A DNA stretch of 64,000 nt, taken from a virus. Taxonomy: Duplodnaviria > Heunggongvirae > Uroviricota > Caudoviricetes. Shown here piece by piece: positions 2,555 to 60,383 of the stretch. The stretch lies in IMG/VR virus record IMGVR_UViG_2778260992_000001. The stretch is one strand, 5' to 3'. Under the pieces are notes generated by a model. It ran no database searches. It was not told the DNA's origin and saw only the letters and a program-made list of their open reading frames with translations. The translations under genes were made by a program, and so were the position numbers. Position 1 is the first letter of the stretch, and every line of letters starts with the position of its first letter.

Positions 2555-2613
2555 ATTGCCATACATAAAATCAAATGCAAAAATAGGTAATCACTTACCT
2601 ATTGAGAAAGAAG

Positions 2614-3207
2614 ATGATTGCAGCCGAAAAAATCAAACAGCGAAAGCGCGACAACTCTCTTCGTGACCTCTGGAGAACACCTGATTGGCTGTTTTCTGCC
2701 ATTCAACGTTATCTTGGGGTGACATTTGATGTTGACGTTGCCTGCAACAAGGACAATGCAAAGCTGCCTAATTTCATAGGCGTTGAGCGTGATGCTTTGA
2801 AATCTGAATGGGGACAGCCAGGTACAATTGCCTTCCTCAATCCACCCTACTCCAAAATCTCCCCCTGGATTGATGCTGCTATACGTGAGCAGGCTCGCGG
2901 AGTTACAACAGTGATGCTAATTCCTCAATCCCTCGATACAAAGTGGTATGAGCGTGCAACAGAGTATGCGAATGAGACGATTATTCTGTCTGGTGGCCGC
3001 GTAGCGTTTGTCGAGCCTGACGTCAATTTGGGTCAGGTAGAAGTAAACATCAACCCCGGTGGCAGTATGCTCGTTGTTTTTCGAGGATTCTGTCAGGACG
3101 CTGGGCACTCTATAAGCAAGATCCCTTTGGACGTAATGAAAAGTCTGGGAGGGTATGATCCTGCGAATGTGGTCAGGAAAAAAAGACCATCAAAGAAGGC
3201 TGCTTAG
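2614..3207 (+). CDS. phage-type DNA N6-adenine methyltransferase (Dam family)
   Basis: translation contains WRTPDWLF, FDVDVAC, FLNPPYS motifs typical of small phage Dam MTases; ATG 2614 preferred over upstream TTG 2602. Confidence 0.7.
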   Translation: MIAAEKIKQRKRDNSLRDLWRTPDWLFSAIQRYLGVTFDVDVACNKDNAKLPNFIGVERDALKSEWGQPGTIAFLNPPYSKISPWIDAAIREQARGVTTVMLIPQSLDTKWYERATEYANETIILSGGRVAFVEPDVNLGQVEVNINPGGSMLVVFRGFCQDAGHSISKIPLDVMKSLGGYDPANVVRKKRPSKKAA

Positions 3208-3392
3208 TTTGTTCTGGCGAGTGTAATTAACCTGCTTCTGTATATAAATAACTACATATTAATTATTAATATACGGAAGCAGGCTGTTTTGTATCAGAGA
3301 CTCCCAGACCTGAACACCACTACAGAATCCACTAGAACCCCTTCTCAGACGCTTTAAAATCGATTTTATGAACCACTTTAAGGAAAACTAAC

Positions 3393-3623
3393 ATGTCATA
3401 CCCGACCAATGTTGTTGCGCTCGTAGAGAGCGATTTTCTGGCTAAGGCTCGTGAAATGATGAAAGATCGCGAGCAGGCTTTCAACTTGTACGAATGGGCA
3501 ATTAAGTGCTTGCATCTTGGGGAGCATCGCGAACTTGTTGAACAGCTTTTAGGTGAGTTGATCAACGAGGTGTTTGCCTTGAATGTTCAACTACATGGTC
3601 GAGAAAATAACCAATCGAAATGA
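3393..3623 (+). CDS. hypothetical small protein
   Basis: 76-aa ORF with RBS aaggaaa upstream. Confidence 0.4.
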   Translation: MSYPTNVVALVESDFLAKAREMMKDREQAFNLYEWAIKCLHLGEHRELVEQLLGELINEVFALNVQLHGRENNQSK

Positions 3624-4120
3624 TAGATAAGTACAAACTATTCATAAGATGGATTGTAAGTGCTAAGATCTGATAGTTTCCAGTCGTAGACTGGAGACTC
3701 GACCTGATGGGTGGGGGTAAGCGTCACTGGCGTCAGGTTTAAAAAAGCTCACTACCAGCGTAGAACCGGTGCCGTTTAGGTGTCGGGGAAGGGGGAACCA
3801 AAGTGAGCGGAGACAAGGGTCACTTTATGATTGTCGAGTCTGGGATGTTTCGAGAGGTTGAATCCAGTACTCCCCTTCATAAAGTGTGGGAAGATCTCGG
3901 TTCTGGGGTGCTGTCATCCATAACTTCCCAAGTCTAAGCTGGCAGTAGACTTAGACCATAGCTTTTCAGGTTATGAAACGACCAGGTTGGTGAGGAATTT
4001 TATACTCACCTCCCTGGGAGAGTATTACCTGAAAAGACAACCTCTCACTTCGTTCGAGGTGAACTTCACTCACTTCGTTCGTTCAGTTCAGGTTTATAAA
4101 AACCTGTACTGGGAAGTAAT
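3624..4120. other. ~500-bp ORF-free region; candidate structured non-coding RNA or regulatory region
   Basis: no ORF of 60 aa or more on any frame; several G-rich tracts and short direct repeats (cacttcgttcg x2). Confidence 0.3.
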
Positions 4121-5690: not shown

Positions 5691-5708
5691 GAAAACAACT
5701 TGTTTTGA
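5691..5708. promoter_or_regulatory. palindromic operator-like site, class 1 (AAGAAAACAAnTTGTTTT)
   Basis: gaaaacaacttgttttg located ~25 bp upstream of ATG 5730. Confidence 0.5.
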
Positions 5709-20759: not shown

Positions 20760-22170
20760 TATGGTTGTTTATACAAATAAGAAAACAACTAAATAACAGA
20801 TCAACGAAACGTCAACGCTTTCACCCGATTTGGTCTAAAAAATTGACGTTTTCACACATCACTTCTTATACCCGTAACTCTACGCAGCAGACAGCGCCAC
20901 AGCGTCCAATTTTCACCACAGACGACCCAACACACTACCAACAAAAACACACGCTCAAAATCGCTCCCGTTGCGTTACGCAACCATATAAACAACTTATT
21001 TTCAGGCATAACAAAACAACTAAATAACACACATGCCATTCCCAAAAACAACCAACCTCTTTATGGCAGGCTACCGAAAAGACCCACCTCTTCTCCCCAG
21101 GCTACCGGACAACCAACCTAACTTTCACAGGCAATCCGAAAACATTCATACGCGCGATACCCACGACACGCCATTACCCAAACAGCGAAGAAATACCAGA
21201 CTCACTGAAACCCCAACGAAGCCTGTTACCGCAAGGATTCTCTCAATCCCAAAAGACACGAAACAGAACAATCACGGGAAACGCCATTACCCAATACACG
21301 AATAACTACAAAAGCCTTTCAGGCACTCCAGACAAACAACTCAAACACAATAACGAAAGCAATCGCCCACCTGCCATTACTCCATACACGGAGAAGAACA
21401 ATCACCAAAACGACGAGAACACCCCATAGAAGAACCACCGCAAAACGAACGAAACCACATACACCGACAGAGAAAACAACACACCCAATTCACCAACAGA
21501 AATAGTCGCCGTATAGGACATTCTGGAAGGAGTGAGCATTAACGCCTATAGAGAGGTTGAGACAGATAAAACACAACATGTATAGCGAAGAAGCCAGGTA
21601 TGTATAAGTGGGGATGGAAGGAGGGGTGTCGCCTCCTTTTTCGTATTTATTCAACTCCTGATTTTATCCCCCGTAACACCCCTACGGTCAGCCTTCGGTC
21701 CATACAGGGGAAAGGCTGCATCCCGCTACAGAAACGGCTGGGTTGCCTTTGGGAACGGCTGGAGGTTTTCAGGGAAACGGTCGAGTTGCCTGTGTGGATT
21801 TCGGGAAAAGGCTCGATGCCGGTTCAGGAACGGTGGCGTACCGGTATAGCGAGAGGGAGAGTTGCGGCTACCCACCTGTAATGTGCGGGAAGAAGAGAGG
21901 CGCTCACGTAGGCGGACTTGCTTACCGCTGGATTCCCTCTGAATGCCCAGCTACAGCGTAATTGTGCCAGACAGCCAACGGGTCACAATCGATTTCAGTA
22001 GGTTTTTGGGGAGAGGATTACTCTGCCACCAGCCACTTTCGGCCACTAAATCAGAATAATGTAAAAAGTGTACTCGGTACTGAACCTGAAAACTCACTGC
22101 CAAAACCACATTCACCGGAACAAAATCCTTTTTCGCCTGTGCGTTATTGCGATAATAACACCATCAAGAA
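20760..22170. repeat. ORF-poor region: A+C-skewed tract with ~19-bp repeats followed by GGRAACGGC-type iterons
   Basis: top strand nearly G-free 20800-21560; repeats gccattacccaaacagcgaag / gccattacccaatacacgaat / gccattactccatacacggag; then gggaaaggctg, gaaacggctg, ggaacggctg, gggaaacggtcg, gggaaaaggctcg. Confidence 0.45.
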
Positions 22171-22194: not shown

Positions 22195-22524
22195 ATGTTT
22201 ACAAATATCGACATCAACCAAATCAAGAAATTAACTCAAAAAGAGTTTGATCAGTTTTATGAGTTAGAAGGTTGGTCTTCCACTCTGATCAATTCAAGAT
22301 GGGTGCTGGAACTGATGACTCGTGATGACGCACCTGCTTTGATGATCAGCGACCTGGGTGAAGATGCTGACTTTATGGATATGAGCGAATTTTGTGTGGA
22401 CACATACAACCGCAGCCAGAAGTACTACTTCACATGCGATAGCGAAAATGACGTGATTTCTAAGGTCTATCTTCACCTCGTCCAGCATTGGGACGTTCAG
22501 GAGTTTCTTGAAGTATTCGAGTAA
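22195..22524 (+). CDS. hypothetical protein
   Basis: ATG 22195 preceded by RBS taaggat; 109 aa. Confidence 0.45.
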   Translation: MFTNIDINQIKKLTQKEFDQFYELEGWSSTLINSRWVLELMTRDDAPALMISDLGEDADFMDMSEFCVDTYNRSQKYYFTCDSENDVISKVYLHLVQHWDVQEFLEVFE

Positions 22525-22650
22525 CCCCAACCAAAGCCAGCATTGCTGGCTTAATTTCTCTATAGCCGCAGGGAAGAACCTGCATATAGCTCATGCACCT
22601 GATCAATATGCTTTGTAGCCGTTTTCTTACTGGTATTATTTACGCCATTG

Positions 22651-22667
22651 AGAAAACAAGTTGTTTA
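22651..22667. promoter_or_regulatory. palindromic operator-like site, class 1
   Basis: agaaaacaagttgttta. Confidence 0.5.
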
Positions 22668-22677
22668 CGGAGTTGTG

Positions 22678-22989
22678 ATGAAAAAATCATTGGTTCTTGG
22701 TCTGGACAAAGACCAGAAGAGAAAAGAGAAGCCTGCGCTGGTTGCTCAATTAACTTTGCTGGACATCGTTGCCAATGGAACCTCTATTCGTCTGTTCCGT
22801 GAAACAGCGGTGTCTTTCGATAAAAACACCTTTACTCGTTATGTAATGAATGTTCGTCGCCAGCGTGGAAAAGGCTGGGTGGCATTTCAAAGAATGTGGC
22901 CGGAACATCAGCTCGAACTGGCTTTGATGGAAGTTAACCGCGTGGCCCAGCAAGAGATTCAGAGAGCATCAGTGATGGCAATAGCCTGA
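22678..22989 (+). CDS. hypothetical protein
   Basis: ATG 22678 with RBS acggag; 103 aa. Confidence 0.45.
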   Translation: MKKSLVLGLDKDQKRKEKPALVAQLTLLDIVANGTSIRLFRETAVSFDKNTFTRYVMNVRRQRGKGWVAFQRMWPEHQLELALMEVNRVAQQEIQRASVMAIA

Positions 22990-23023
22990 TAATGTGCAAG
23001 TGGTAATTAGTCGACCGTACGAC

Positions 23024-23052
23024 AGCCCCGCCATCCTTACGGGGCTTTTTTG
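23024..23052 (+). terminator. rho-independent terminator
   Basis: agccccgccatccttacggggct + tttttt. Confidence 0.6.
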
Positions 23053-23115
23053 TATTGTAAGTACATACTTACGATCATAGAATATAAAAATAACCAAAAC
23101 ACTACGGAGAGTGAA

Positions 23116-23511
23116 ATGACCGTTAAACGCGAAAAACTGACAGTTGATGTTTACTATGCCTCTGAAACCGCCGAAGGTAAGAATGTGGCAAAAATCACCG
23201 TTGTTACGTACAACACCGAAACTGGTGCCGAAGTCCAGGCCAGTACGATCGTGCGTAAAGGTGATGCCTCCGGCGGCGAGTACGCGACTCAATACCAGTC
23301 CATTCTCGATGCAACTGACCCGCTGCTGCTGAAAATCGAGAACTACTTCCGCCAGGTTAATGAAGAGGTGTTTGAAACCATGATGAATATGGTTAACACC
23401 GTATTCGCCTCCAGCCTGAATACCAACACTACCTGGATTGGTCAGTACGGCCTGCGCATTACCTCTGGCATTCCTGCCGACACCTTAATCCCTGAAAGCG
23501 TATTCGCTTAA
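23116..23511 (+). CDS. hypothetical protein
   Basis: ATG 23116 with RBS ggagagtg; 131 aa. Confidence 0.5.
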   Translation: MTVKREKLTVDVYYASETAEGKNVAKITVVTYNTETGAEVQASTIVRKGDASGGEYATQYQSILDATDPLLLKIENYFRQVNEEVFETMMNMVNTVFASSLNTNTTWIGQYGLRITSGIPADTLIPESVFA

Positions 23512-24649: not shown

Positions 24650-24787
24650 AAATGACTATCTTGTTTCCCGCAGGCTAAAAACACCAACCTCTTACCTCCA
24701 GGCAACCGACAAACCCACCTGTTCCCGTCCGGCTACCGTAACTTTCCACTTTGACGCCTTATTCGTACAACGATAATTAACACCAAC

Positions 24788-30579: not shown

Positions 30580-30598
30580 TAAGTAAGTGATTACTTAG
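30580..30598. promoter_or_regulatory. palindromic site, class 2
   Basis: taagtaagtgattacttag immediately upstream of first ParB-like gene. Confidence 0.45.
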
Positions 30599-30615
30599 TG
30601 GATTGTAGCAATAAA

Positions 30616-31296
30616 ATGGATGTAAAAATCACGATTTTGCAGGTTGATGTTGCCAACCTTCGCCCGAATACCTGGAACACCAATTCGGTTGGTGCGCAGA
30701 ATTTTGAAAAACTGAAAGGTTCTATCGAAAAATTGGGCTTTTTTAAGCCAATTTTGGCTCGTGAACTTGAAGATGGATTTTTTGAAATCCTCGGCGGTGA
30801 ACATCGCTGGCGTGCTGCTATTGAGCAAGGAATTTCAACGGTTCCGGTGCTTTCTGTGGGCAAAATTAGCGATGTCGTAGCTAAACAGATGTCACTGGTG
30901 GACAACGAGCGATACGGTGAAGACGACCAAATCGCATTGCAACGCTTCATTGAAGAAATTCAGTCAGAACTTGACTATCAACTGTTTGAAATCGCTCCGT
31001 ATGACGACGAAATCTCGATGGTTTTAGCAAAAGAGGCGGCAATCGACCTTGAAGCACTGGAGGCGTTGTCTCGTGGTAGTGATGAGCCTGTCGATACCGA
31101 CAAACGAGAGAAAACCGAACGTGTGGGTGCGGAACATCAGACCATGCGCTTCAAAGTAACTTTCGATGCGTCAGATCGTGTTGCAGAAACCATAAAAAAC
31201 ATCATCAAAGAGCAGGCTATTAACACCGGTAATGAAATGGAGAACGCTGGTGAGGCTCTGGTGTGGCTGGTCGACTACTACAAGGAGCGTATGTAA
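30616..31296 (+). CDS. ParB N-terminal-domain (ParB/Srx nuclease-like) protein 1
   Basis: LGGEHRWRAAIEQGISTVPV ParB-N signature; start ATG 30616 (alternative GTG 30598). Confidence 0.6.
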   Translation: MDVKITILQVDVANLRPNTWNTNSVGAQNFEKLKGSIEKLGFFKPILARELEDGFFEILGGEHRWRAAIEQGISTVPVLSVGKISDVVAKQMSLVDNERYGEDDQIALQRFIEEIQSELDYQLFEIAPYDDEISMVLAKEAAIDLEALEALSRGSDEPVDTDKREKTERVGAEHQTMRFKVTFDASDRVAETIKNIIKEQAINTGNEMENAGEALVWLVDYYKERM

Positions 31297-31964
31297 TGAC
31301 CAAAAAGTTTGAAATCGTATATCGCGACCCGGCAGATCTTATTCCCTATGAGATGAATGCCAAAAAGCATGATGAACAGCAGATCAGAGATCTGGCCGCA
31401 GCCATTAAAAAGCGCGGATTTGACCAGCCAATTACGGTCGATAAGAACGACGTAATTATTACTGGCCACGGCCGCCGTGAGGCTGCAATTTTTGCTGGAC
31501 TTGAGCGCGTACCGGTTATTGTTCGCGATGATCTCAGTGATGACGAGGTTCGTGCGAAGCGCCTTGAAGATAACCGACTTGCCAGCATTGATTACGATGC
31601 AATTAAGCTACAGAAAGAGCTTGAGTCGCTTGTTCTGGACGATATCGAGGTTTTCGGCTTTGAAGAGCGTGAGTTGAATGTTCTCGTTGGCAGTATGACA
31701 GAAGAAATGGACACCGACTCGCTAGTTATCGATCTTGGCGAAGAAACTAAACGACAGAAGGATGAACACACCGAGATCAGTCGTGAAGTTGCAGCGGAAG
31801 AAGTACGTGTTGTCGACGTATTGGGCTTTAAAACGCTCCCTGCTGGCTCTGCCATTGTTGTTGGTGATTTGCTTGCCCATATGGAAGAAATGACGGGAGA
31901 AAGCGGGGTAGACGCATTTGTGGCATATGCGGAGAAGATCTCTTCCGGGGAGATGGCTGCATGA
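31296..31964 (+). CDS. ParB N-terminal-domain (ParB/Srx nuclease-like) protein 2
   Basis: ITGHGRREAAIFAGLERVPVIV ParB-N signature; TAATG coupling, RBS aaggag. Confidence 0.6.
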   Translation: MTKKFEIVYRDPADLIPYEMNAKKHDEQQIRDLAAAIKKRGFDQPITVDKNDVIITGHGRREAAIFAGLERVPVIVRDDLSDDEVRAKRLEDNRLASIDYDAIKLQKELESLVLDDIEVFGFEERELNVLVGSMTEEMDTDSLVIDLGEETKRQKDEHTEISREVAAEEVRVVDVLGFKTLPAGSAIVVGDLLAHMEEMTGESGVDAFVAYAEKISSGEMAA

Positions 31965-32626
31965 GCAAATACATCATCAACGTATCGTTTCAGACACGCG
32001 TAAATAAAACCACGCGCACGTTGGAAATCGCTGAGTCGTTCGGGCTTGGCCTGGACGAAAAAGAGTGGACGCTTTACGACAATCTGGAGCTGGAAGTGAA
32101 GCAGGGCGATGTGGTGTACATCACCGGCCAATCCGGTTCCGGCAAATCCGTTGTGCTGCGCGAGTTGCAACGACAGATGAAGGATGAAGGGCTGTCTGTA
32201 GCCTCCATCGATGATTTTACCTTCGATAATGAGGTTAACGTCATCGATCAGTTGGGCAAAACGACCAGTGATGCGCTTGGGTTGTTATCTATGGCTGGTC
32301 TGAACGATGCATATCTGTTTGTTCGCAAGCCTTCTGAAATGTCAGACGGCCAGAAATATCGTCTCAAGATTGCCAAACTGATTGAGTCAGGCGCTAAAGT
32401 ATGGGCTGCTGACGAGTTCGGCGCTGTTCTCGACCGTGTAACCGCTCAGGTTGTGGCGTCTAACCTCCAGCGTGCCGCTCGAAAGGTTGGTGCGACGGTA
32501 ATGGTGGCGACGACTCACGAAGACCTGAAGAACGCGCTGCGCCCTGATATGCAGATCACCAAGCACTACAAAGAACGCGTGAAGGTGGAATATCACAATG
32601 GTAGTCATGATGAGGTCCATTCATGA
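31961..32626 (+). CDS. stand-alone ABC-type ATPase (nucleotide-binding-domain only)
   Basis: Walker A GQSGSGKS, ABC signature-like MSDGQKYRL, Walker B VWAADEF, H-loop TTHED; 221 aa, no membrane domain. Confidence 0.6.
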   Translation: MSKYIINVSFQTRVNKTTRTLEIAESFGLGLDEKEWTLYDNLELEVKQGDVVYITGQSGSGKSVVLRELQRQMKDEGLSVASIDDFTFDNEVNVIDQLGKTTSDALGLLSMAGLNDAYLFVRKPSEMSDGQKYRLKIAKLIESGAKVWAADEFGAVLDRVTAQVVASNLQRAARKVGATVMVATTHEDLKNALRPDMQITKHYKERVKVEYHNGSHDEVHS

Positions 32627-33513
32627 CGGACATCATCATTAAACGCTACCGCCCTGAAGAGTTTCCGCGTCATCTGGACTTTCTGGAGCGAATGACTGTT
32701 ACAAAGGGAACTGTAGAGGACTGGCACGCTCTTAAGTCGCTTCACTACAAAACAGACGGCAAACCTTTCGCGCCAACTTACTATCGCTGCGAACTTGATG
32801 ACCGTCTGGTGGGCGTCGTGGTTATGGCTTACCCGAAACTACTGTTGGCACCTCGCCACCGCATGTTTCCTAAGTTGAAACCAACCACTAATACCACCGT
32901 GGCTAACCAGTACTGGGGTCGGTACGTGAATAACAACTTTGCGGTGATCAGTCGCTCAGTTGTGGATACTCAGTATCGTGGCGTAGGCGTCTCTTATAGA
33001 ATGATTAACCTGGTTAGCAGGATGCATGACCGGCCAATCATTGAGATCCAGTCCTCGATGAGCAAATACAATCCCTTCGCCATGAAAGCAGGGTTTAAGT
33101 TCATCCGCCCTGAGCGACCGAAGAGCTATGAAAGTGCACTGCGTGTGTTCCAGCGCCATTTCCGCTCCGACCCGGGTGATAACGAGGCGATCGTCAAAGA
33201 GTTGTTCGCTATGAGCGAGTCTCGTCGTCGCCGTGCGCTGCGCGATTTGGTGGCGGACTACCATAAGAACAGTTCCCTGGCAAAAGCTGGGCGGAATCGT
33301 GGCACGACGATTCAGGACATTGCCGACAGTCTGGTGGACGAGGCCAGCATTGTGAAGCTGCTCAAGGACATTCACAACCTGAGCTTTACGTCTCCGTTGT
33401 ATGGTGTGTACCGAAACCCTGACTTTGGCCGTCGACTGCCTGACACGCTGCCACTGCTGGCATTCGACAAACAACCTTTGGATAAACCGTTAGAAATTGC
33501 TTTACCGGCATAA
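32623..33513 (+). CDS. hypothetical protein (possible GNAT acetyltransferase-like fold)
   Basis: ATGA-coupled; YRGVGVSYRMI resembles GNAT motif A; otherwise unassigned. Confidence 0.4.
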   Translation: MTDIIIKRYRPEEFPRHLDFLERMTVTKGTVEDWHALKSLHYKTDGKPFAPTYYRCELDDRLVGVVVMAYPKLLLAPRHRMFPKLKPTTNTTVANQYWGRYVNNNFAVISRSVVDTQYRGVGVSYRMINLVSRMHDRPIIEIQSSMSKYNPFAMKAGFKFIRPERPKSYESALRVFQRHFRSDPGDNEAIVKELFAMSESRRRRALRDLVADYHKNSSLAKAGRNRGTTIQDIADSLVDEASIVKLLKDIHNLSFTSPLYGVYRNPDFGRRLPDTLPLLAFDKQPLDKPLEIALPA

Positions 33514-33522
33514 GGATTTGCC

Positions 33523-33789
33523 ATGACGTTAACCGATAAACAAAAGGACATCATCAAAACGCTCAATCTCGGTTATGAGCGAGGTCATCTACTTGACCTG
33601 GACGAATTGCTTGAAGTTTTGCCGTACAAGACAACCAAGCAAAGTATCCAGTTCTCAATTCGCGCTCTGATAAAAAAGGGGCTGGTGGAGAAAGGGCATA
33701 CGCGCCAACGCAGTGACAATCGCTATCACCGCCGGACTCTTGGGTTAACCACTTTAGGTCGAGCCAAAGCGAAGTTACTGGTGATGTAA
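33523..33789 (+). CDS. hypothetical small DNA-binding (winged-helix-like) protein
   Basis: 88 aa, basic C-terminus. Confidence 0.4.
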   Translation: MTLTDKQKDIIKTLNLGYERGHLLDLDELLEVLPYKTTKQSIQFSIRALIKKGLVEKGHTRQRSDNRYHRRTLGLTTLGRAKAKLLVM

Positions 33790-33903
33790 TCGGTCTGGGA
33801 GCTTATTTAAAGACCTGCATCTGTATATATAAATAATAAGTAACTTATTAAATATATACGGAAGCAGGCTTCGTAAGACATGCCAGACCTAATTAAACAC
33901 CCC

Positions 33904-33947
33904 AGAAAACAAGTTGGTTAGCAGATGCAGTAAACAAGTTGTTTTAG
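33904..33947. promoter_or_regulatory. two class-1 palindromic sites in tandem upstream of small terminase gene
   Basis: gaaaacaagttggtt and taaacaagttgtttta. Confidence 0.5.
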
Positions 33948-33984
33948 AGCGCATGGACGCGCTCTGTGTGTTTTAGAGGGATCT

Positions 33985-34617
33985 ATGACGGTCGAAAAAG
34001 ACGAGGTAAAAACTCGCCTGACACCAGCGGAGTGGGCCGAAGCTGAAGCCAAATGGACGTCAGGCGAATATACACTCTCAAAGCTGGAGGAAGAGTACGG
34101 CATTCGTCGTGAAACACTCTCCAGACATTTCAAAAAGCGAGGATTAGAGAAAGGCGCGGACTCTGTTGGGAAGATGGTTCGTGAGTCTCTTAAATCTGAC
34201 GCAGAGCTTCGCGCTAAAGCCCGTGCGGAAAAGATAGAAGAACGTCGTACACGTTATGACGGCTGGGCGTATGCGTTGGGGCAGATGGTGATGGTCGAAG
34301 TCACTACGGCCAAACGTGAGGGTAAGCCTTTAGGGGCGATTGAGGATTCTCTCAAGAGCTTACAGAGAGCCAGTAATACCCTTGCAAAATGCTTTGAAGT
34401 TTCGTCCAAAGCATTGGGCATGGATCATGCGGAAAATGACGAGGAAGAAATTCCGAACCTGGTATTTGGTGAGCTTACGCCTTCCCAGGTGGCGAAATTA
34501 CGTCAGGAAGACGACGAGCCTGAAATCATCGATGACGAATTGCTTGAGACGTTGGAAGAAGAAGCTCTAAGCGAATTTGATGCGACAGATGATGGAAGTG
34601 AAGGGGAGGACGAATAA
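33985..34617 (+). CDS. putative terminase small subunit
   Basis: position immediately upstream of and coupled to large terminase; N-terminal HTH-like region, acidic C-terminus. Confidence 0.55.
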   Translation: MTVEKDEVKTRLTPAEWAEAEAKWTSGEYTLSKLEEEYGIRRETLSRHFKKRGLEKGADSVGKMVRESLKSDAELRAKARAEKIEERRTRYDGWAYALGQMVMVEVTTAKREGKPLGAIEDSLKSLQRASNTLAKCFEVSSKALGMDHAENDEEEIPNLVFGELTPSQVAKLRQEDDEPEIIDDELLETLEEEALSEFDATDDGSEGEDE

Positions 34618-35873
34618 TGGCAATCCCGTCCTCGCTCAGTCTTGTGCAACTGCATTCTGGACAGATGAAAGTCTTCCAGTCTCCGCATCGATTTAAAGTT
34701 GTTTGTGCTGGTCGACGCTGGGGAAAATCCCGGTTGTCGATCTCCACTATTATTCGTGCGGCGGCAAAGGAAAAAAAGCAAAGGGTCTGGTATGTCGCTC
34801 CTACATACCAGATGGCTCGCCAGATTTTGTGGGACGATCTACAGGAAGTTCTGCCTCGTAAGTGGGTTAGGAAAAAGAACGACACCACGATGACAATCGT
34901 GTTGAAGAACGGTTCGGAGATCGCCCTCAAAGGTGCTGATAAGCCTGACACTCTGCGCGGCGTAGCGTTGCATTTTGTAGTGCTTGATGAATTTCAGGAT
35001 ATGAAGGCTGACACCTGGTACAAGGTGTTACGACCTACTCTTTCATCGACACGCGGCGGTGCACTGATCATTGGTACGCCAAAAGGCTTCTCGGAATTTC
35101 ACAAACTGTGGACTATAGGCCAGAACGTAGAGCTGCAAAGAAAGGGACAGTGGAAGAGCTGGCAGTTTGTAACTGCCGATTCTCCGTTTGTACCTACGGC
35201 GGAAATTGAAGCTGCTAAGAACGATATGGACCCGAAATCGTTCGCTCAGGAGTACCTGGCGAGCTTTGAGAACATGTCCGGGCGCGTTTACTACCCGTTC
35301 GATCGTAACGTGCATGTAAAACCGCTTCAGTTCAACCCTCGGTTGCCTATATGGGTAGGGCAGGACTTCAACATTGACCCGATGTCTTCAGTAATTTTGC
35401 AACCTCAGCCAAATGGTGAGCTATGGGCAATTGATGAATTGGTGCTCTTTTCCTCTAACACGGCAGAGGTTTGTGATGAGCTTGAGAGACGCTTCTGGCG
35501 CTGGAAATCACAGATAACGGTATTTCCAGATCCGGCAGGTGCTTATCGCCAACATGCTCGCGGGGAGTCTGACGTCGACATATTCAAAGAGAAGGGATTC
35601 TTACGTGTCGATTATTCGAAAAAGCACCCGCCAATTGCGGATCGTGTTAATGCTGTTAACCGAATGCTGATGACCGCATCTGGAGATATCCGGCTGTATA
35701 TCGATCCGAAGTGCAAGCATTTGATTGATTCACTGGAAAAAGTCATCTACAAGCCTGGAACACGAGATATGGATAAGACAGGTGGCATTGAGCATAGTGC
35801 AGACGCATTGGGCTATCCAGTACATCGTAGGTATCCAGTCAAAAACCGTGTTATTCTTGGTGGTTCTCGATAG
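34617..35873 (+). CDS. terminase large subunit
   Basis: Walker A CAGRRWGKS, Walker B HFVVLDEF, followed by nuclease-like C-terminal half. Confidence 0.8.
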   Translation: MAIPSSLSLVQLHSGQMKVFQSPHRFKVVCAGRRWGKSRLSISTIIRAAAKEKKQRVWYVAPTYQMARQILWDDLQEVLPRKWVRKKNDTTMTIVLKNGSEIALKGADKPDTLRGVALHFVVLDEFQDMKADTWYKVLRPTLSSTRGGALIIGTPKGFSEFHKLWTIGQNVELQRKGQWKSWQFVTADSPFVPTAEIEAAKNDMDPKSFAQEYLASFENMSGRVYYPFDRNVHVKPLQFNPRLPIWVGQDFNIDPMSSVILQPQPNGELWAIDELVLFSSNTAEVCDELERRFWRWKSQITVFPDPAGAYRQHARGESDVDIFKEKGFLRVDYSKKHPPIADRVNAVNRMLMTASGDIRLYIDPKCKHLIDSLEKVIYKPGTRDMDKTGGIEHSADALGYPVHRRYPVKNRVILGGSR

Positions 35874-56354: not shown

Positions 56355-59300
56355 ATGTGGTACAGGGAAGGTACTATCACATTTACACAGGGTAGCAATA
56401 CTCTGGTTGGGGCAGGGACAGCCTGGAACGTAACAGCTAATGGTGTGTTGCCTGGGATGATCGTCATTGGCCCCGACAACAAGCTGTATGAGATCAAGCG
56501 CGTAACCAGTGATACGAACATTGTTCTCTCAGAACCTTATACCGGCGAAACTCAGTCTGAAGTTCCGTGCCGAATCATTACGACCTATGAAGGCGACTTA
56601 ACACAGTTTAGCGCGCGCTTTACTGCACTAATGTCGCGTATGTCGGCTGATTCAAAGTCCATGCGCAGTTGGTTGACTGCTCTGGATGAGGTGACAATCG
56701 AGCGTGAAGACGGTACAGAAGTGACCGTTAAGCCGCTAATGCAGATCGTCAACGAGCACAACGAAAACGTTGAGTGGTATAAAAATAACACTGACGCGAT
56801 TGATGCTGCTGGCGACAAAGCTCGTGAGGCGGCGGCCAGTGCTGCCGCAGCAGCAGAAAGCGCCAATACCGCTGGAGAAAAAGCCTCTCAAGCGTCTCAA
56901 AGTGCATCCGCTGCGGCATCCTCACAAAGTGCTGCAAGTGCGAGCGCAACTGCTGCGAAAAAATCTGAAACGAACGCACAAGCCGCAAAAGAAGCGGCAG
57001 CAGAATCAGCATCTGTAGCGTCGGCCAAAGCATCGGAGGCAGCAACATCTGCGTCCAGTGCCTCTGCATCTAAGGATGCAGCCAAAGCATCAGAGACTAA
57101 CGCTTCATCGAGCGCAAACGCGGCAGCATCATCGGCAACAGAAGCTGCAAATTCGTCTAAGGCAGCAAAAACGTCAGAGGCAAACGCAAAAGCATCTGAA
57201 ACGGCAGCCGAACAGAGTGCATCGTCTGCAAACAGTTCGAAATCTGCGGCAGAAGCGTCAGCAAGCGCAGCCTCAGCAAGTGCGGATAGTGCTTCATCAA
57301 GTGCAACAGCGGCAGGAAAATCTGCGGATAGCGCATTGTCATCAGCGACAACAGCTACCACAAAAGCGACAGAGGCGACGAGTCAGGCTACAGCTGCTAA
57401 AAATTCAGCATCTGCAGCAAAAACCTCTGAAACAAATGCAAAGACTTCAGAAGACAATGCTGCTTCCTCTAAGGCGGCAGCTGCTGAATCTGCAAGTTCT
57501 GCGTCTGCATCAGCCTCCTCAGCATCCGCTTCAAAAGATGAGGCTACCAAGCAGGCATCAGAAGCGAAGGGCAGTGCTTCAACGGCATCCACGAAAGCAA
57601 CAGAGGCGGCAGGCAGTGCGACGGCTGCATCTCAGAGCAAAACTGCTGCTGAATCCGCTGCGACCCGTGCGGAAGCTGCTGCTGATCGTGCTGAAGAGAT
57701 TGCCGGTGCGGTTGCGATGGAAGACGCAAGCCTTACAACTAAAGGTGTTGTGAAACTTAGCAGTGCTGTCGATAGCACCAGTGAATCGCTGGCCGCAACG
57801 CCAAAAGCAGTTAAAGCAGCCAATGACAATGCGAATAGCAGGGTGCCATCTAACCGAAAAATTAACGGAAAAGCACTGACTGCGGATATAACATTAACGC
57901 CGAAAGATATTGGTACTTTAAATTCAGTAACGATGTCTTTCTCTGGCGGGGCTGGGTGGTTCAAACTGGCTACGGTTACCATGCCACAAGCGAGTTCCAT
58001 CGTTTACATCACATTGATTGGTGGTGCTGGATATAATGTTAACTCCCCTATGCAGGCTGGTATATCTGAACTTGTTCTTCGTGCGGGAAATGGAAATCCA
58101 AAAGGTCTTACTGGTGCGTTATGGCGAAGGACATCGGTTGGATTTACTAATTTTGCATGGGTGAATACATCCGGCGATACATATGATATTTATGTTGAGA
58201 TTGGCAATTATGCGACGAGTGTAAATGTCCACTGGGATTGTACTGCAAATGCGTCAGTTTCTATTTATACATCGCCAACATATTCAGCGAGTAAGCCTGC
58301 CAGCGTTACCGATGGTGTTGTTTATACGATGTATAGCTCACATCAGAAACCTACGCCATCAGATATTGGAGCACTGCCAACAACCGGAGGAACAGTTTCT
58401 GGTCCGTTGTCTGTTACAGGCGGATTAACTGGTTCATTGAATGGTAATGCAAGTACAGCAACGAAATTACAGACGACAAGAACTATCGGTGGAGTTGGTT
58501 TCGACGGTTCTGCCAATATTAATCTTCCAGGTGTAAACACTACGGGTAATCAGAACACCACTGGTAATGCCGCAACTGCTACAAAACTACAGACGGCAAG
58601 AACTATCGGCGGCGTGAGCTTTGATGGTACTGCAAATATTAATTTGCCAGGTGTTAATACGACTGGTAATCAGAATACAACAGGTAATGCGGCTACTGCT
58701 ACGAAGTTGCAGACTGCGCGTACTATTAATGGGGTGTCGTTTGACGGTTCGGCAAATATTTCCTTGTCACCAGCAAATATAGGTTGCCCGGCATCTCCTA
58801 CTGGTTGGTTAACTACAGGAAGTAATGGCGGAGCAATAACAACAGCCCAGTTAGTGACGTTATTGCAAAATAATGGAGCCTTTAACACAAAGGCATGGAT
58901 TGCTCGATGTGCGTGGGCCTATGCCAATAGCGCAACCATACCAAATAGTGAAACTGGTTGTGGCGTTATTCCATTGGCAGGAGCTGTTATAGAAGTATTT
59001 AATAACGGTAGTAGTTCAAATAATTATACGATCCGCATAACAACGGCCACAACGACAAGTGTTTCCGGTGCTCTCACTAATGCGGAGTTTATCTATGTAT
59101 TTAATGGCACAGATTATTCTCCAGGATGGCGAAGAGTATATAACACGAAAAACAAACCAACTGCATCTGACGTTGGTGCATTACCTCTTACCGGTGGTAC
59201 ATTATCTGGAGGTTTGACATCTTCTGGTGAGATCGTTTCAAAATATGCAAATGGTTTCCGCATTGCTTACGGTAGCTTTGGGTTCTTTATCCGTAATGAC

Positions 59301-60383
59301 GGCGGCAGCACATATTTCATGCTAACAGCATCAGGAGATACGTTAGGTTCATGGAACGGCTTGCGACCGATTACAATTAATAATACTAGCGGTGTTGTGT
59401 CTATTGGTAATGGACTAAATGTTACTGGTGGCGTAAATGGTAGTTTGAACGGTAATGCTTCAACAGCTACGAAGTTGCAAACAGCGAGAAACATCAATGG
59501 TGTTAAGTTTGATGGCTCAGGCGATATCAACATTAATACATTGGTATCTCGTGGCCGAGTTACGGCGTTAAGCGGCTCTACTCAAGGCACTGCTGGCATT
59601 CAAATGTACGAGGCGTACAACAATAGCTATCCGACCACGTATGGCAACGTATTGCACATGAAAGGTGCGAGTGCTGCTGGCGAGGGTGAGTTGCTTATTG
59701 GCTGGAGTGGTACGAGCGGTGCACATGCGCCGGTTTTCATTCGCTCCCGAAGAGATACCACTGATGCAGCATGGTCAGCGTGGGCACAGGTATATACCGC
59801 TAAGGATTCAATCCCTGGTGTGAATACAACCGGTAATCAGAACACTACTGGTAATGCTGCCACCGCCACAAAATTGCAGACAGCAAGGAAAATTGCTGGT
59901 GTGGCGTTTGATGGCTCTGCCGATATTACTTTGACTGCGGCTAACCTTAATGCCTATACGAAAACAGAGGTAACAAACCTTCTAAGTTCCTATGTGAAGA
60001 GCAGTTCTCTTCCAAGCATGACTGTGCGAACTTCCTCTGTTTCAGGTGGGGATATGGGCATGAGTTTGTCCGCATTCATTAGCCACCTTAAATCAAATGG
60101 GGCGTTTAGCAAAAGTTATTGGATTGGCTTTGGCGATGCTATGGGATTCAATGCTGGCAGTATCAACAATATAACGGGATTTGGTGCTGTAGAATTAGCA
60201 GAATCCATAATCGAAGTTTTTAATCTACCTAATGGTGATTATACAATTCGTTTAACGACGTCACACAAAGCTGACTACGGTGGGATTACAAACGCAATCC
60301 TCGTTTATCACTACCGCAGTAATAGAAACCCGGCAGGTCAATGGCTTAAATTTGCCGGTACTCTTGGGGCTACAAACAACTGA
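56355..60383 (+). CDS. side tail fibre protein
   Basis: Ala/Ser-rich SETNAK-type low-complexity region, conserved AATPKAVK fibre motif, repeated GNAATATKLQTARTIGGV modules. Confidence 0.85.
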   Translation: MWYREGTITFTQGSNTLVGAGTAWNVTANGVLPGMIVIGPDNKLYEIKRVTSDTNIVLSEPYTGETQSEVPCRIITTYEGDLTQFSARFTALMSRMSADSKSMRSWLTALDEVTIEREDGTEVTVKPLMQIVNEHNENVEWYKNNTDAIDAAGDKAREAAASAAAAAESANTAGEKASQASQSASAAASSQSAASASATAAKKSETNAQAAKEAAAESASVASAKASEAATSASSASASKDAAKASETNASSSANAAASSATEAANSSKAAKTSEANAKASETAAEQSASSANSSKSAAEASASAASASADSASSSATAAGKSADSALSSATTATTKATEATSQATAAKNSASAAKTSETNAKTSEDNAASSKAAAAESASSASASASSASASKDEATKQASEAKGSASTASTKATEAAGSATAASQSKTAAESAATRAEAAADRAEEIAGAVAMEDASLTTKGVVKLSSAVDSTSESLAATPKAVKAANDNANSRVPSNRKINGKALTADITLTPKDIGTLNSVTMSFSGGAGWFKLATVTMPQASSIVYITLIGGAGYNVNSPMQAGISELVLRAGNGNPKGLTGALWRRTSVGFTNFAWVNTSGDTYDIYVEIGNYATSVNVHWDCTANASVSIYTSPTYSASKPASVTDGVVYTMYSSHQKPTPSDIGALPTTGGTVSGPLSVTGGLTGSLNGNASTATKLQTTRTIGGVGFDGSANINLPGVNTTGNQNTTGNAATATKLQTARTIGGVSFDGTANINLPGVNTTGNQNTTGNAATATKLQTARTINGVSFDGSANISLSPANIGCPASPTGWLTTGSNGGAITTAQLVTLLQNNGAFNTKAWIARCAWAYANSATIPNSETGCGVIPLAGAVIEVFNNGSSSNNYTIRITTATTTSVSGALTNAEFIYVFNGTDYSPGWRRVYNTKNKPTASDVGALPLTGGTLSGGLTSSGEIVSKYANGFRIAYGSFGFFIRNDGGSTYFMLTASGDTLGSWNGLRPITINNTSGVVSIGNGLNVTGGVNGSLNGNASTATKLQTARNINGVKFDGSGDININTLVSRGRVTALSGSTQGTAGIQMYEAYNNSYPTTYGNVLHMKGASAAGEGELLIGWSGTSGAHAPVFIRSRRDTTDAAWSAWAQVYTAKDSIPGVNTTGNQNTTGNAATATKLQTARKIAGVAFDGSADITLTAANLNAYTKTEVTNLLSSYVKSSSLPSMTVRTSSVSGGDMGMSLSAFISHLKSNGAFSKSYWIGFGDAMGFNAGSINNITGFGAVELAESIIEVFNLPNGDYTIRLTTSHKADYGGITNAILVYHYRSNRNPAGQWLKFAGTLGATNN

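Follow-up and report, generated by a model that had tools for sequence, protein, structure and literature searches.

In a 64,000-nucleotide stretch of tailed-phage DNA (IMG/VR record IMGVR_UViG_2778260992_000001, Caudoviricetes; the whole stretch is called the window below), a palindromic intergenic element occurs twice, once behind a gene for a Dam-family adenine methylase (copy A) and once in front of the small terminase gene terS (copy B). This arrangement raises the question of what such a repeated palindrome does in a genome whose genes, within the window, lie on the + strand almost throughout. The original prediction, made from the letters of the sequence, proposed a T4-type late promoter or a packaging (pac/cos) recognition site. 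The analysis reported here favors a different reading, to which a probability of about 0.5 is given: the repeat would be a cassette of intrinsic terminator and promoter by which operons are insulated from one another.

The window belongs to an SSU5-type phage-plasmid and is 97–99% identical to the Escherichia coli phages CMS-2020a, PhiR41_1 and Cyrano and ~78% to Salmonella phage SSU5. Around copy A, identity is 97–98% to the three E. coli phages, ~79% to SSU5 and ~77% to Klebsiella relatives, and the stretch around copy B behaves likewise. The claim that one element recurs at both places was borne out by pairwise alignment of the copies, in which 78% of 136 columns are identical and long stretches agree throughout, and a repeat finder lists the pair as its family D18. 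The right-arm 16-mer TATACGGAAGCAGGCT is present exactly at both sites; with up to three mismatches it has 4 sites against 0.35 expected, a number reached in none of 100 shuffles. The description of the copies as AT-rich hairpins with GC clamps was equally accurate, as the hairpin RNAs of both have a GC-rich base and an AT-rich top and fold with z-scores of −6.8 (A) and −8.7 (B), as well as none of 200 shuffles did. Taken as the stretch 3225–3300, copy A folds at −25.7 kcal/mol (z = −6.3), copy B at −26.3 kcal/mol (z = −7.3) and the third copy found in Cyrano, described below, at −41.6 kcal/mol (z = −10.1), so that all copies folded lie in the range z = −6 to −10. The octamer TATAAATA is indeed contained in both copies, the gene context had been read correctly (the methylase before A, a winged-helix gene before B, terS and the large terminase gene terL after B), and the copy upstream of terS is special as suspected, being the longer palindrome and the one that lacks a T-tract.

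Copies A and B are paralogues. In SSU5-type phage-plasmids they belong to a family with three copies, whose classes are called A, B and C. The class is recognized by its gene context: A follows the Dam methylase, B stands between an 88-residue protein gene and terS, and C precedes the replication module. In SSU5 the class C copy lies at 33459–33515, between SSU5_037 and SSU5_038 with the helicase/primase module; going by the SSU5 spacing, its position falls past the end of the window, and a search of the window allowing up to 4 mismatches per 17-nt arm returned no copy beyond A and B. A scan of IMG/VR with the arm pattern gave at least 120 loci, and among the matches listed every locus could be assigned to class A, B or C by its flanks, all in a single orientation relative to the genes and at conserved intergenic positions. 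In PLSDB, 800 plasmids carry a match (from Klebsiella, Escherichia, Enterobacter, Salmonella and others, and including pMT1 of Yersinia pestis). The core measures 52–57 bp across the family, and its arms, CCTGCnTCyGTATA, are strictly conserved across Escherichia, Salmonella, Klebsiella and Yersinia. At the apex, classes B and C of one lineage are more alike than one class is between lineages, AATAAGTAACTTATT being common to B and C of E. coli and ACTAAGTnACTTATT to B and C of SSU5; because of this within-lineage resemblance, the copies are taken to evolve in concert. Among the IMG/VR loci, the sequence upstream of class C is wholly different between lineages up to ~25 nt before the palindrome and the downstream side is conserved, a pattern by which the class C cassette would mark a mosaic junction.

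The classes differ in what follows the hairpin. At least five T within the 8 nt after it, read on the gene strand, were found in 22 of 24 unique variants of class A, in all 20 of class C and in none of the 24 of class B; on the opposite strand the same measure gave 0/24 for A, 0/24 for B and 4/20 for C. The tail of copy A is CTGTTTTG, with five T in eight immediately 3' of the stem, and that of copy C in Cyrano is TCTTTTAAAG. Classes A and C also have ~130 nt of downstream sequence in common, which ends in CCAGWCGC(T)-TAnnAT about 100 nt past the palindrome center. This promoter-like pattern is present in 22 of the 24 class A variants, and class C has a related box, CCAGTCGC-TATGAT/TATCAT; a simple sigma-70 scan called no + strand promoter within or beside either window copy. 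Complementarity of the outer flanks exceeds that of shuffles (p ≤ 0.05) most often in class B (82% of variants), less often in class A (32%) and seldom in class C (7%), and the apex motif TAAGTAACTTA occurs in 9 of 13 class B cores, 5 of 10 of class C and 0 of 13 of class A. Copy A of the window is the most terminator-only member of the family: the apex motif and most of the outer complementarity have been lost (in the E. coli lineage its left box pairs only weakly with the right one, z about −1), and the hairpin and T-tract are intact.

Published RNA sequencing (RNA-seq) of E. coli LF82 carrying Cyrano, comprising ten samples tabulated as log2(fpkm+5), where fpkm is fragments per kilobase per million (S1 Table, PMC9928086; reads GSE154648), allows transcription on the two sides of each copy to be compared. 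The Cyrano intervals concerned are 31134–31328 for copy C, 78060–78247 for copy A and 108317 to 135 for copy B. For CYRAN_30, upstream of copy C, the values are 5.8, 5.74, 8.61, 8.97, 10.42, 10.15, 9.85, 9.78, 9.97 and 10.14, and for CYRAN_31, downstream of it, 2.32, 2.88, 2.9, 2.91, 2.56, 2.65, 3.06, 2.99, 3.91 and 4.19 (PMC9928086). In gene-level terms this is a drop of up to ~1000-fold, from ~1000 fpkm to ~1 in the best-expressed samples. Copy C occupies 31159–31211 of Cyrano, within the 193-nt gap between these two genes; it is the sole strong hairpin there, and no other hairpin followed by a T-run was found in that gap. Because expression drops across a gap whose only hairpin with a T-run is copy C, we infer that copy C terminates the lysogen-active par operon before the silent replication genes. 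Around copy A, CYRAN_80 (after the copy) exceeds CYRAN_79 (the Dam gene) in 10 of 10 samples, both being near background (PMC9928086), which fits a promoter after the copy A hairpin. Across copy B, the winged-helix gene reaches ~90 fpkm, terS ~30 and terL ~12 (PMC9928086), a ~2–7-fold fall that corresponds to attenuation, not a block, of transcripts.

These data bear on the T4-type late promoter of the original prediction, according to which the TATAAATA core would be used by a phage-modified RNA polymerase. The octamer does resemble such promoters, it stands on the gene strand in both window copies, and the late operon comes after copy B. Expression across class C falls, however, and does not rise, and the octamer is neither conserved in the family nor repeated before late genes. 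Of 36 distinct cores, 25 have it on the + strand and 11, those of Klebsiella class B among them, do not, and in some class C cores it is on the opposite strand; the 64 kb hold 5 occurrences (1.5 expected), of which none apart from that in copy B precedes a late gene (34–64 kb, + strand). Factors of the gp55 or gp33 type are likewise missing from the annotations of SSU5 and of the Cyrano regions fetched, although no dedicated profile search of all open reading frames (ORFs) was made. In a distant relative, Acinetobacter baumannii pZHOU-1, a sigma-70-family sigma factor is encoded beside a MoxR ATPase (22485–23150 of locus L150); a tblastn search detected no homologue of this factor in either SSU5 or the window. 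The late-promoter reading is not supported by these comparisons and is regarded as extremely improbable.

The preferred model proposes that three paralogous palindromic intergenic cassettes punctuate the genome at the borders of long co-directional gene blocks. At copies A and C, the + strand RNA would form a hairpin of ~23–25 bp with a GC-rich base, and the U-tract that directly follows it would cause release of the RNA polymerase arriving from the upstream block, which at copy A ends with Dam. The promoter-like box ~100 nt further on would then start the next block, and the cassette would insulate neighboring transcription units, separating, in the case of class C, the lysogen-expressed par operon from the silent lytic replication genes. 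For copy A, the best-supported mechanism is that the upstream block ends there by intrinsic termination and that a promoter behind the hairpin serves the next block. Copy B would form the same hairpin but without the U-tract; because this tract is absent and the flanks lengthen the palindrome to ~100 bp, it is not expected to terminate on its own. It probably represents the ancestral long palindrome, kept between the MarR-like regulator gene and terS and upstream of a separate terminator, and it probably has a part in controlling or processing the RNA that runs into the late operon. What is observed is the repeat family with its architecture, the T-tract confined to certain classes, the fall in expression across class C and the palindrome found before terS throughout the family; that termination causes this fall, that copy A acts likewise and that copy B has any role at all are inferences. 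The features of both regions are collected in Table 1.

Table 1. Features of the two window regions that carry the element (window coordinates)
Feature	Position	Strand	Basis or remark
Dam-family adenine methylase gene, last of the block upstream of copy A	2602..3207	+	Pfam PF05869, E=2.3e-38; annotated as methylase in relatives
Copy A, whole	3212-3310	+	Palindrome plus both outer boxes
Copy A left outer box TTCTGGCGAG	3212..3221	+	Degenerate version of family box GTCTGGGAG
Copy A inner palindrome CCTGCTTCTGTATAT...ATATACGGAAGCAGG	3231..3283	+	15-bp GC-based stem, AT-rich upper stem
TATAAATA in copy A	3243-3250	+	Octamer inside inner palindrome
Copy A T-tract CTGTTTTGTATC	3284..3295	+	Directly after hairpin; 5 T in first 8 nt; putative terminator tail
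Copy A right outer box CTCCCAGACC	3301..3310	+	Sequence and family alignment
Promoter-like box CAGACGCT-T-TAAAAT	3346..3360	+	−10-like hexamer 3355-3360; 33 nt before ATG at 3393
76-aa ORF, first gene past copy A	3393..3623	+	PHROG 5343, function unknown
88-aa MarR-like winged-helix protein gene	33523..33789	+	Immediately upstream of copy B; AlphaFold pLDDT (predicted local distance difference test) 82.8
Copy B, whole palindrome, ~98 bp	33792-33889	+	Inner core extended by flanks; ~40 pairs on folding
Copy B left outer box GGTCTGGGAG	33792..33801	+	Sequence and family alignment
Copy B inner palindrome	33814..33868	+	No T-tract after it
TATAAATA in copy B	33828-33835	+	Octamer inside inner palindrome
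Copy B apex motif TAAGTAACTTA	33837..33847	+	Small palindrome of TAAGT-N0-6-ACTTA type
Copy B right outer box GCCAGACC	33882..33889	+	Complementary flank lengthens palindrome
Two operator-like palindromes, AAACAAnTTGTTT type	33907-33919, 33932-33944	+	Between copy B and terS
GC-rich hairpin + T-run	33945..33976	+	Abuts terS ribosome-binding site; flagged terminator-like
terS (small terminase / DNA-binding protein)	33985..34617	+	ORF and profile matches
terL	34617-35873	+	Follows terS

Several observations weigh against the terminator cassette. Intrinsic terminators rarely have a stem as long and as rich in AU as this one, a simple terminator scan calls none of the copies, and ordinary GC-rich terminators are used elsewhere in the phage (near 15126, 15911 and 23030), which raises the question of why there should be three special ones. 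A terminator would not require arms as strictly conserved as these, and the apices of B and C evolve in concert; both points suggest a trans-acting factor that reads the sequence. Because copy B has the same core without a T-tract, the family as a whole cannot function in termination. The RNA-seq values are gene-level, come from the single relative Cyrano and are informative for class C only, and RNAalifold on 33 close variants recovered an invariant base stem alone, with no compensatory pairs; as the arms of these variants were fixed by the retrieval pattern, this last result is neutral on structure. A comparison with Rfam 15 returned nothing at the gathering score, chance matches to microRNA-type hairpins lying far below it.

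Compared with known systems, the element agrees with intrinsic terminators such as lambda tR' in its GC-based hairpin followed by a U-tract, in its place at the end of a co-directional block and in the drop of expression across class C. It departs from them in its mostly A-U stem, in a sequence conserved across genera and copies, in its outer boxes and in the existence of one copy that has no U-tract. The T4-type phages reportedly contain PeSL cassettes (a name associated with Arbiol, Comeau and Krisch, 2010), which are said to be repeated intergenic units of promoter and stem-loop at module borders. The element is like them in being an intergenic repeat that joins a stem-loop and a promoter-like box at module borders, with class C mosaic upstream, and unlike them in having three copies only, in placing the stem-loop before the promoter-like box and in showing no sequence relationship. 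The kind of element, a terminator hairpin in an intergenic cassette, is already known, and the conserved repeat family is, going by the accessible literature, previously undescribed; new about it are the strict sequence conservation, the three paralogous copies with class-specific tails and the palindrome found family-wide before terS.

The outer boxes bring in a second way of reading the two-tier hairpin, as a site of RNase III processing or retroregulation like lambda sib/tI. RNAs that end at the T-tract would keep the protective inner hairpin, and read-through RNAs, which at copy B means all of them, would form the outer stem and be cut. As in lambda tI/sib, there are two tiers, and because the T-tract comes before the right outer box, the outer pairing is possible only in read-through RNA. 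Inner and outer stems together make a helix of 35–40 bp in copy B and in copy A of the SSU5 type, and the palindromes of B type in distant relatives reach helices of 30–45 bp. The outer pairing is, however, not significant in class C and weak in the window's copy A, and the element has no link to an integrase gene. Which strand folds better is no guide to whether the palindrome acts as RNA or as DNA. This test was tried and set aside: of 11 B-type palindromes, 10 fold better on the + strand, but random windows of these sequences lean the same way in 40–76% of cases, with a standard deviation of ~6 kcal/mol, and the differences between strands stay within that baseline; among the cores alone the + strand was favored in 18 and the − strand in 13. 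Processing in the manner of sib/tI is considered improbable.

The surroundings of copy B were compared with those of distant relatives found through TerL, which keep the order winged-helix gene, intergenic region, terS. The model of the 88-residue protein encoded upstream of copy B was matched by Foldseek to MepR, MarR and small archaeal winged-helix proteins at template modeling (TM) scores of 0.72–0.78, and judging from this predicted fold a regulator–operator relationship of the protein with copy B is possible. The GC-rich hairpin and T-run in front of terS are kept, with different stem sequences, at eight loci of distant relatives. Because this terminator directly abuts the ribosome-binding site of terS, transcription of the late genes must pass it, which suggests antitermination control.

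At the place of copy B, the distant relatives carry palindromes with AT-rich centers and quite different arms. The palindrome of Faunimonas measures 102 nt and folds at z = −12.3, that of Methylocystis at z = −9.3, and those of a Piscirickettsiaceae genome, Chitinibacter and Xenorhabdus at −3.4, −3.3 and −2.6, respectively. In A. baumannii pZHOU-1, whose TerL is 59% identical, there is one three-tier palindrome of ~110 bp, ~560 nt upstream of terS (z = −5.7), and a second copy was not found in the 100 kb examined. Because distant relatives hold palindromes with different arms at this position, the palindromy itself appears to be what is kept there by selection, and perfect arms of at least 30 bp argue for intra-strand pairing rather than for a dimeric protein site. 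T-tracts are missing from all of these palindromes, and a terminator of its own stands immediately in front of terS in each genome. Copies A and C of the enterobacteria look as if they were derived later from the inner half and gained T-tracts. It is possible, as a tentative proposal for which the odds are clearly below even, that copy B is a conserved structure-dependent cis element of a broad phage-plasmid family, of which the enterobacteria copied the inner half twice and added T-tracts. This broad family may span Enterobacteria, Acinetobacter and alpha-proteobacteria, and the arms would co-vary wholesale between lineages. As a hairpin or cruciform, copy B may act in a step peculiar to the late or packaging module, as a packaging initiation or cleavage site, or as a cruciform or double-stranded RNA switch that gates the late operon.

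It may also be argued that the palindromes are primarily operators for a phage regulator, either the MarR-like protein or a factor binding TAAGT..ACTTA, which would switch three downstream operons (late genes, replication genes and the block behind Dam) on or off, termination being secondary. The MarR-type winged-helix gene stands directly upstream of copy B, in an arrangement kept in distant relatives, and in many other phages the gene just upstream of terS encodes a late activator (e.g. RinA), which is counted in favor of operators. The strictly conserved arms and the concerted evolution of the apex point the same way, as do boxes of the CTCCCAGAC type, which are repeated around the element and beside the −10-like box. 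The apex of B and C is itself a small palindrome, TAAGT-N0-6-ACTTA, which recurs before other genes, with 6 matches against 0.27 expected (23058, 30584, 33837, 37378, 42873 and 56297), several of them shortly upstream of gene starts, and it has more than 20 homologous copies in the Acinetobacter relative. There are points on the other side. The spacing of the arms varies from 52 to 57 bp, by about half a helical turn, which is awkward for a single dimer touching both; copy A of the E. coli lineage has lost the apex motif and most of the outer complementarity and kept the hairpin and T-tract; and no sigma-70 promoter is called on the + strand at or beside the palindromes. A primary operator role is regarded as doubtful.

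Looser variants of TAAGT..ACTTA were noted near 2583, 9765, 35870 and 60508, the one near 35870 lying at the terL/portal junction. The homologous motif of Acinetobacter, ATTATTAGTAAGCGCTTACTATAAT (L149/L150), stands before >20 genes and also forms the apex of the big palindrome there, and this small palindrome may be a family-wide operator or promoter element. The other small palindrome, AAACAAnTTGTTT, has 14 matches in the window against 0.56 expected, at 5693, 6422, 10963, 19325, 19376, 20989, 22170, 22654, 23557, 24307, 24792, 33907, 33932 and 63478. Several of these copies flank extended −10 promoters (repeat families D3/D4; e.g. TGAGATAAT at ~19355), and they look like operators of a prophage repressor distributed over many early promoters.

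The position of copy B also recalls the second proposal of the original prediction, a packaging site. On this view copy B would be the terminase recognition or cleavage site (cos or pac), with A and C as secondary or decayed copies. Copy B ends 116 nt before the start of terS, where many cos and pac sites lie, and copy A is 30 kb away; like lambda cos and SPP1 pac, copy B stands just upstream of terS and has twofold symmetry. Long palindromes are found upstream of terS across the whole family, including the single large one of the Acinetobacter relative. In addition, SSU5 has a linear GenBank record whose first base falls within its class B palindrome, 8 nt right of the palindrome center, the record ending with ...GTGACTTATTA and beginning with AATATATACGG... 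This start is off-center, however, the joined ends match those of plasmid relatives with no bases missing or duplicated, and an assembly break at a hairpin or repeat explains it equally well. The record of Cyrano starts at a distance of one base; as Cyrano is plasmid pLF82 re-annotated, its start was probably modeled on SSU5 and is not independent. None of 56 IMG/VR stretches with a class B flank begins in the palindrome, and packaging ends of SSU5 were not found in the accessible literature. The record of Klebsiella phage vB_KpnS_p4727, considered as a possible virion end, starts at the ATG after copy A and was rejected as an arbitrary re-orientation to a gene start. Draft assemblies contain many truncated winged-helix proteins, which is compatible with assembly breaks near the repeat.

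Further points against packaging come from the family and from the terminase. Enterobacterial genomes have three near-identical cores, and cutting at all of them would fragment the genome; for copy A the proposal is not supported, given three copies per genome, two classes with T-tracts and class C lying at the expression drop. The palindrome is far longer than known cleavage sites, and perfect arms of ≥30 bp in distant relatives favor intra-strand pairing over a terminase binding site. The nearest counterparts of the large terminase, all at low identity, are found in P74-26, T4, T5-like and Jersey-like phages; its identity to the TerL proteins of T5-like, Jersey-like and P74-26-like phages is ~25–30%, so that the packaging mode cannot be told from it and a cos mechanism, whose enzymes are unrelated, is not supported. 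Copy B is unlikely to be the packaging site.

The location of the third copy suggests one more role, at the DNA level, as a site of replication or segregation, either an origin of the herpesvirus oriL/oriS type or a dispersed centromere like those of N15. Copy C is immediately flanked by the ParA operon on its upstream side and the helicase/primase module on its downstream side, genes for proteins with a ParB N-terminal domain lie upstream of copy B, and the element, with three copies per genome, has an AT-rich center between GC-rich inverted-repeat ends, much as oriL and oriS of herpes simplex virus have an AT-rich center between GC-richer inverted boxes and several copies per genome. Unlike these origins, the element has no known initiator, and one of its classes behaves as a terminator. 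The arms hold no iteron-like or parS-like repeats, nothing links replication or Par proteins to the sequence, and the Acinetobacter relative has one copy, near terS and away from its replication and par genes. The class-specific T-tracts and the drop in expression are likewise left unaccounted for, and a role of this kind is very unlikely. The block upstream of the winged-helix gene (30598–33510) encodes two proteins with a ParB N-terminal domain and two P-loop/ABC-type ATPases, one of which is annotated in Cyrano as an acetyltransferase-domain fusion, and in the Acinetobacter relative, too, this block is located upstream of terS.

The terminator cassette matters because SSU5-type phage-plasmids are common in clinical Enterobacteriaceae, as the number of PLSDB plasmids with the element illustrates, and their regulation is almost unstudied. 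With the element, the division of ~100 kb of co-directional genes into transcription units would be mapped for the first time, including the place at which insulation separates the lytic genes from the plasmid-maintenance genes that the lysogen expresses. The element also points to a defined control region before the late and packaging operon, composed of the winged-helix gene, the long palindrome, the operator-like sites and the terminator. In practical terms, the hairpins are likely sites of assembly breaks, and the repeat could serve as a compact typing marker for this plasmid family.

Some other features of the window were noted. Shortly downstream of copy A, a strongly structured intergenic region (3671–4040) has two stable hairpins and includes a 44-residue ORF (3803–3937, equivalent to CYRAN_81). 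Its Cyrano equivalent is expressed ~12-fold above the prophage background in the lysogen RNA-seq (average 117), and a small RNA or small protein may be produced from it during lysogeny. Five direct repeats of ~31 nt with 30–31-nt spacing (AAAACAACCAACCTC...CAGGCTACCG) fall into two clusters (21045–21141 and 24677–24742) separated by 3.6 kb and look like iterons or centromere repeats. Finally, a putative tail-fibre gene contains, at 58407–59944, diverged in-frame repeats with a 120-nt period (GGTAATGC...ACGAAATTACAGAC..., repeat families D1/D2), which probably encode a repeated protein domain.

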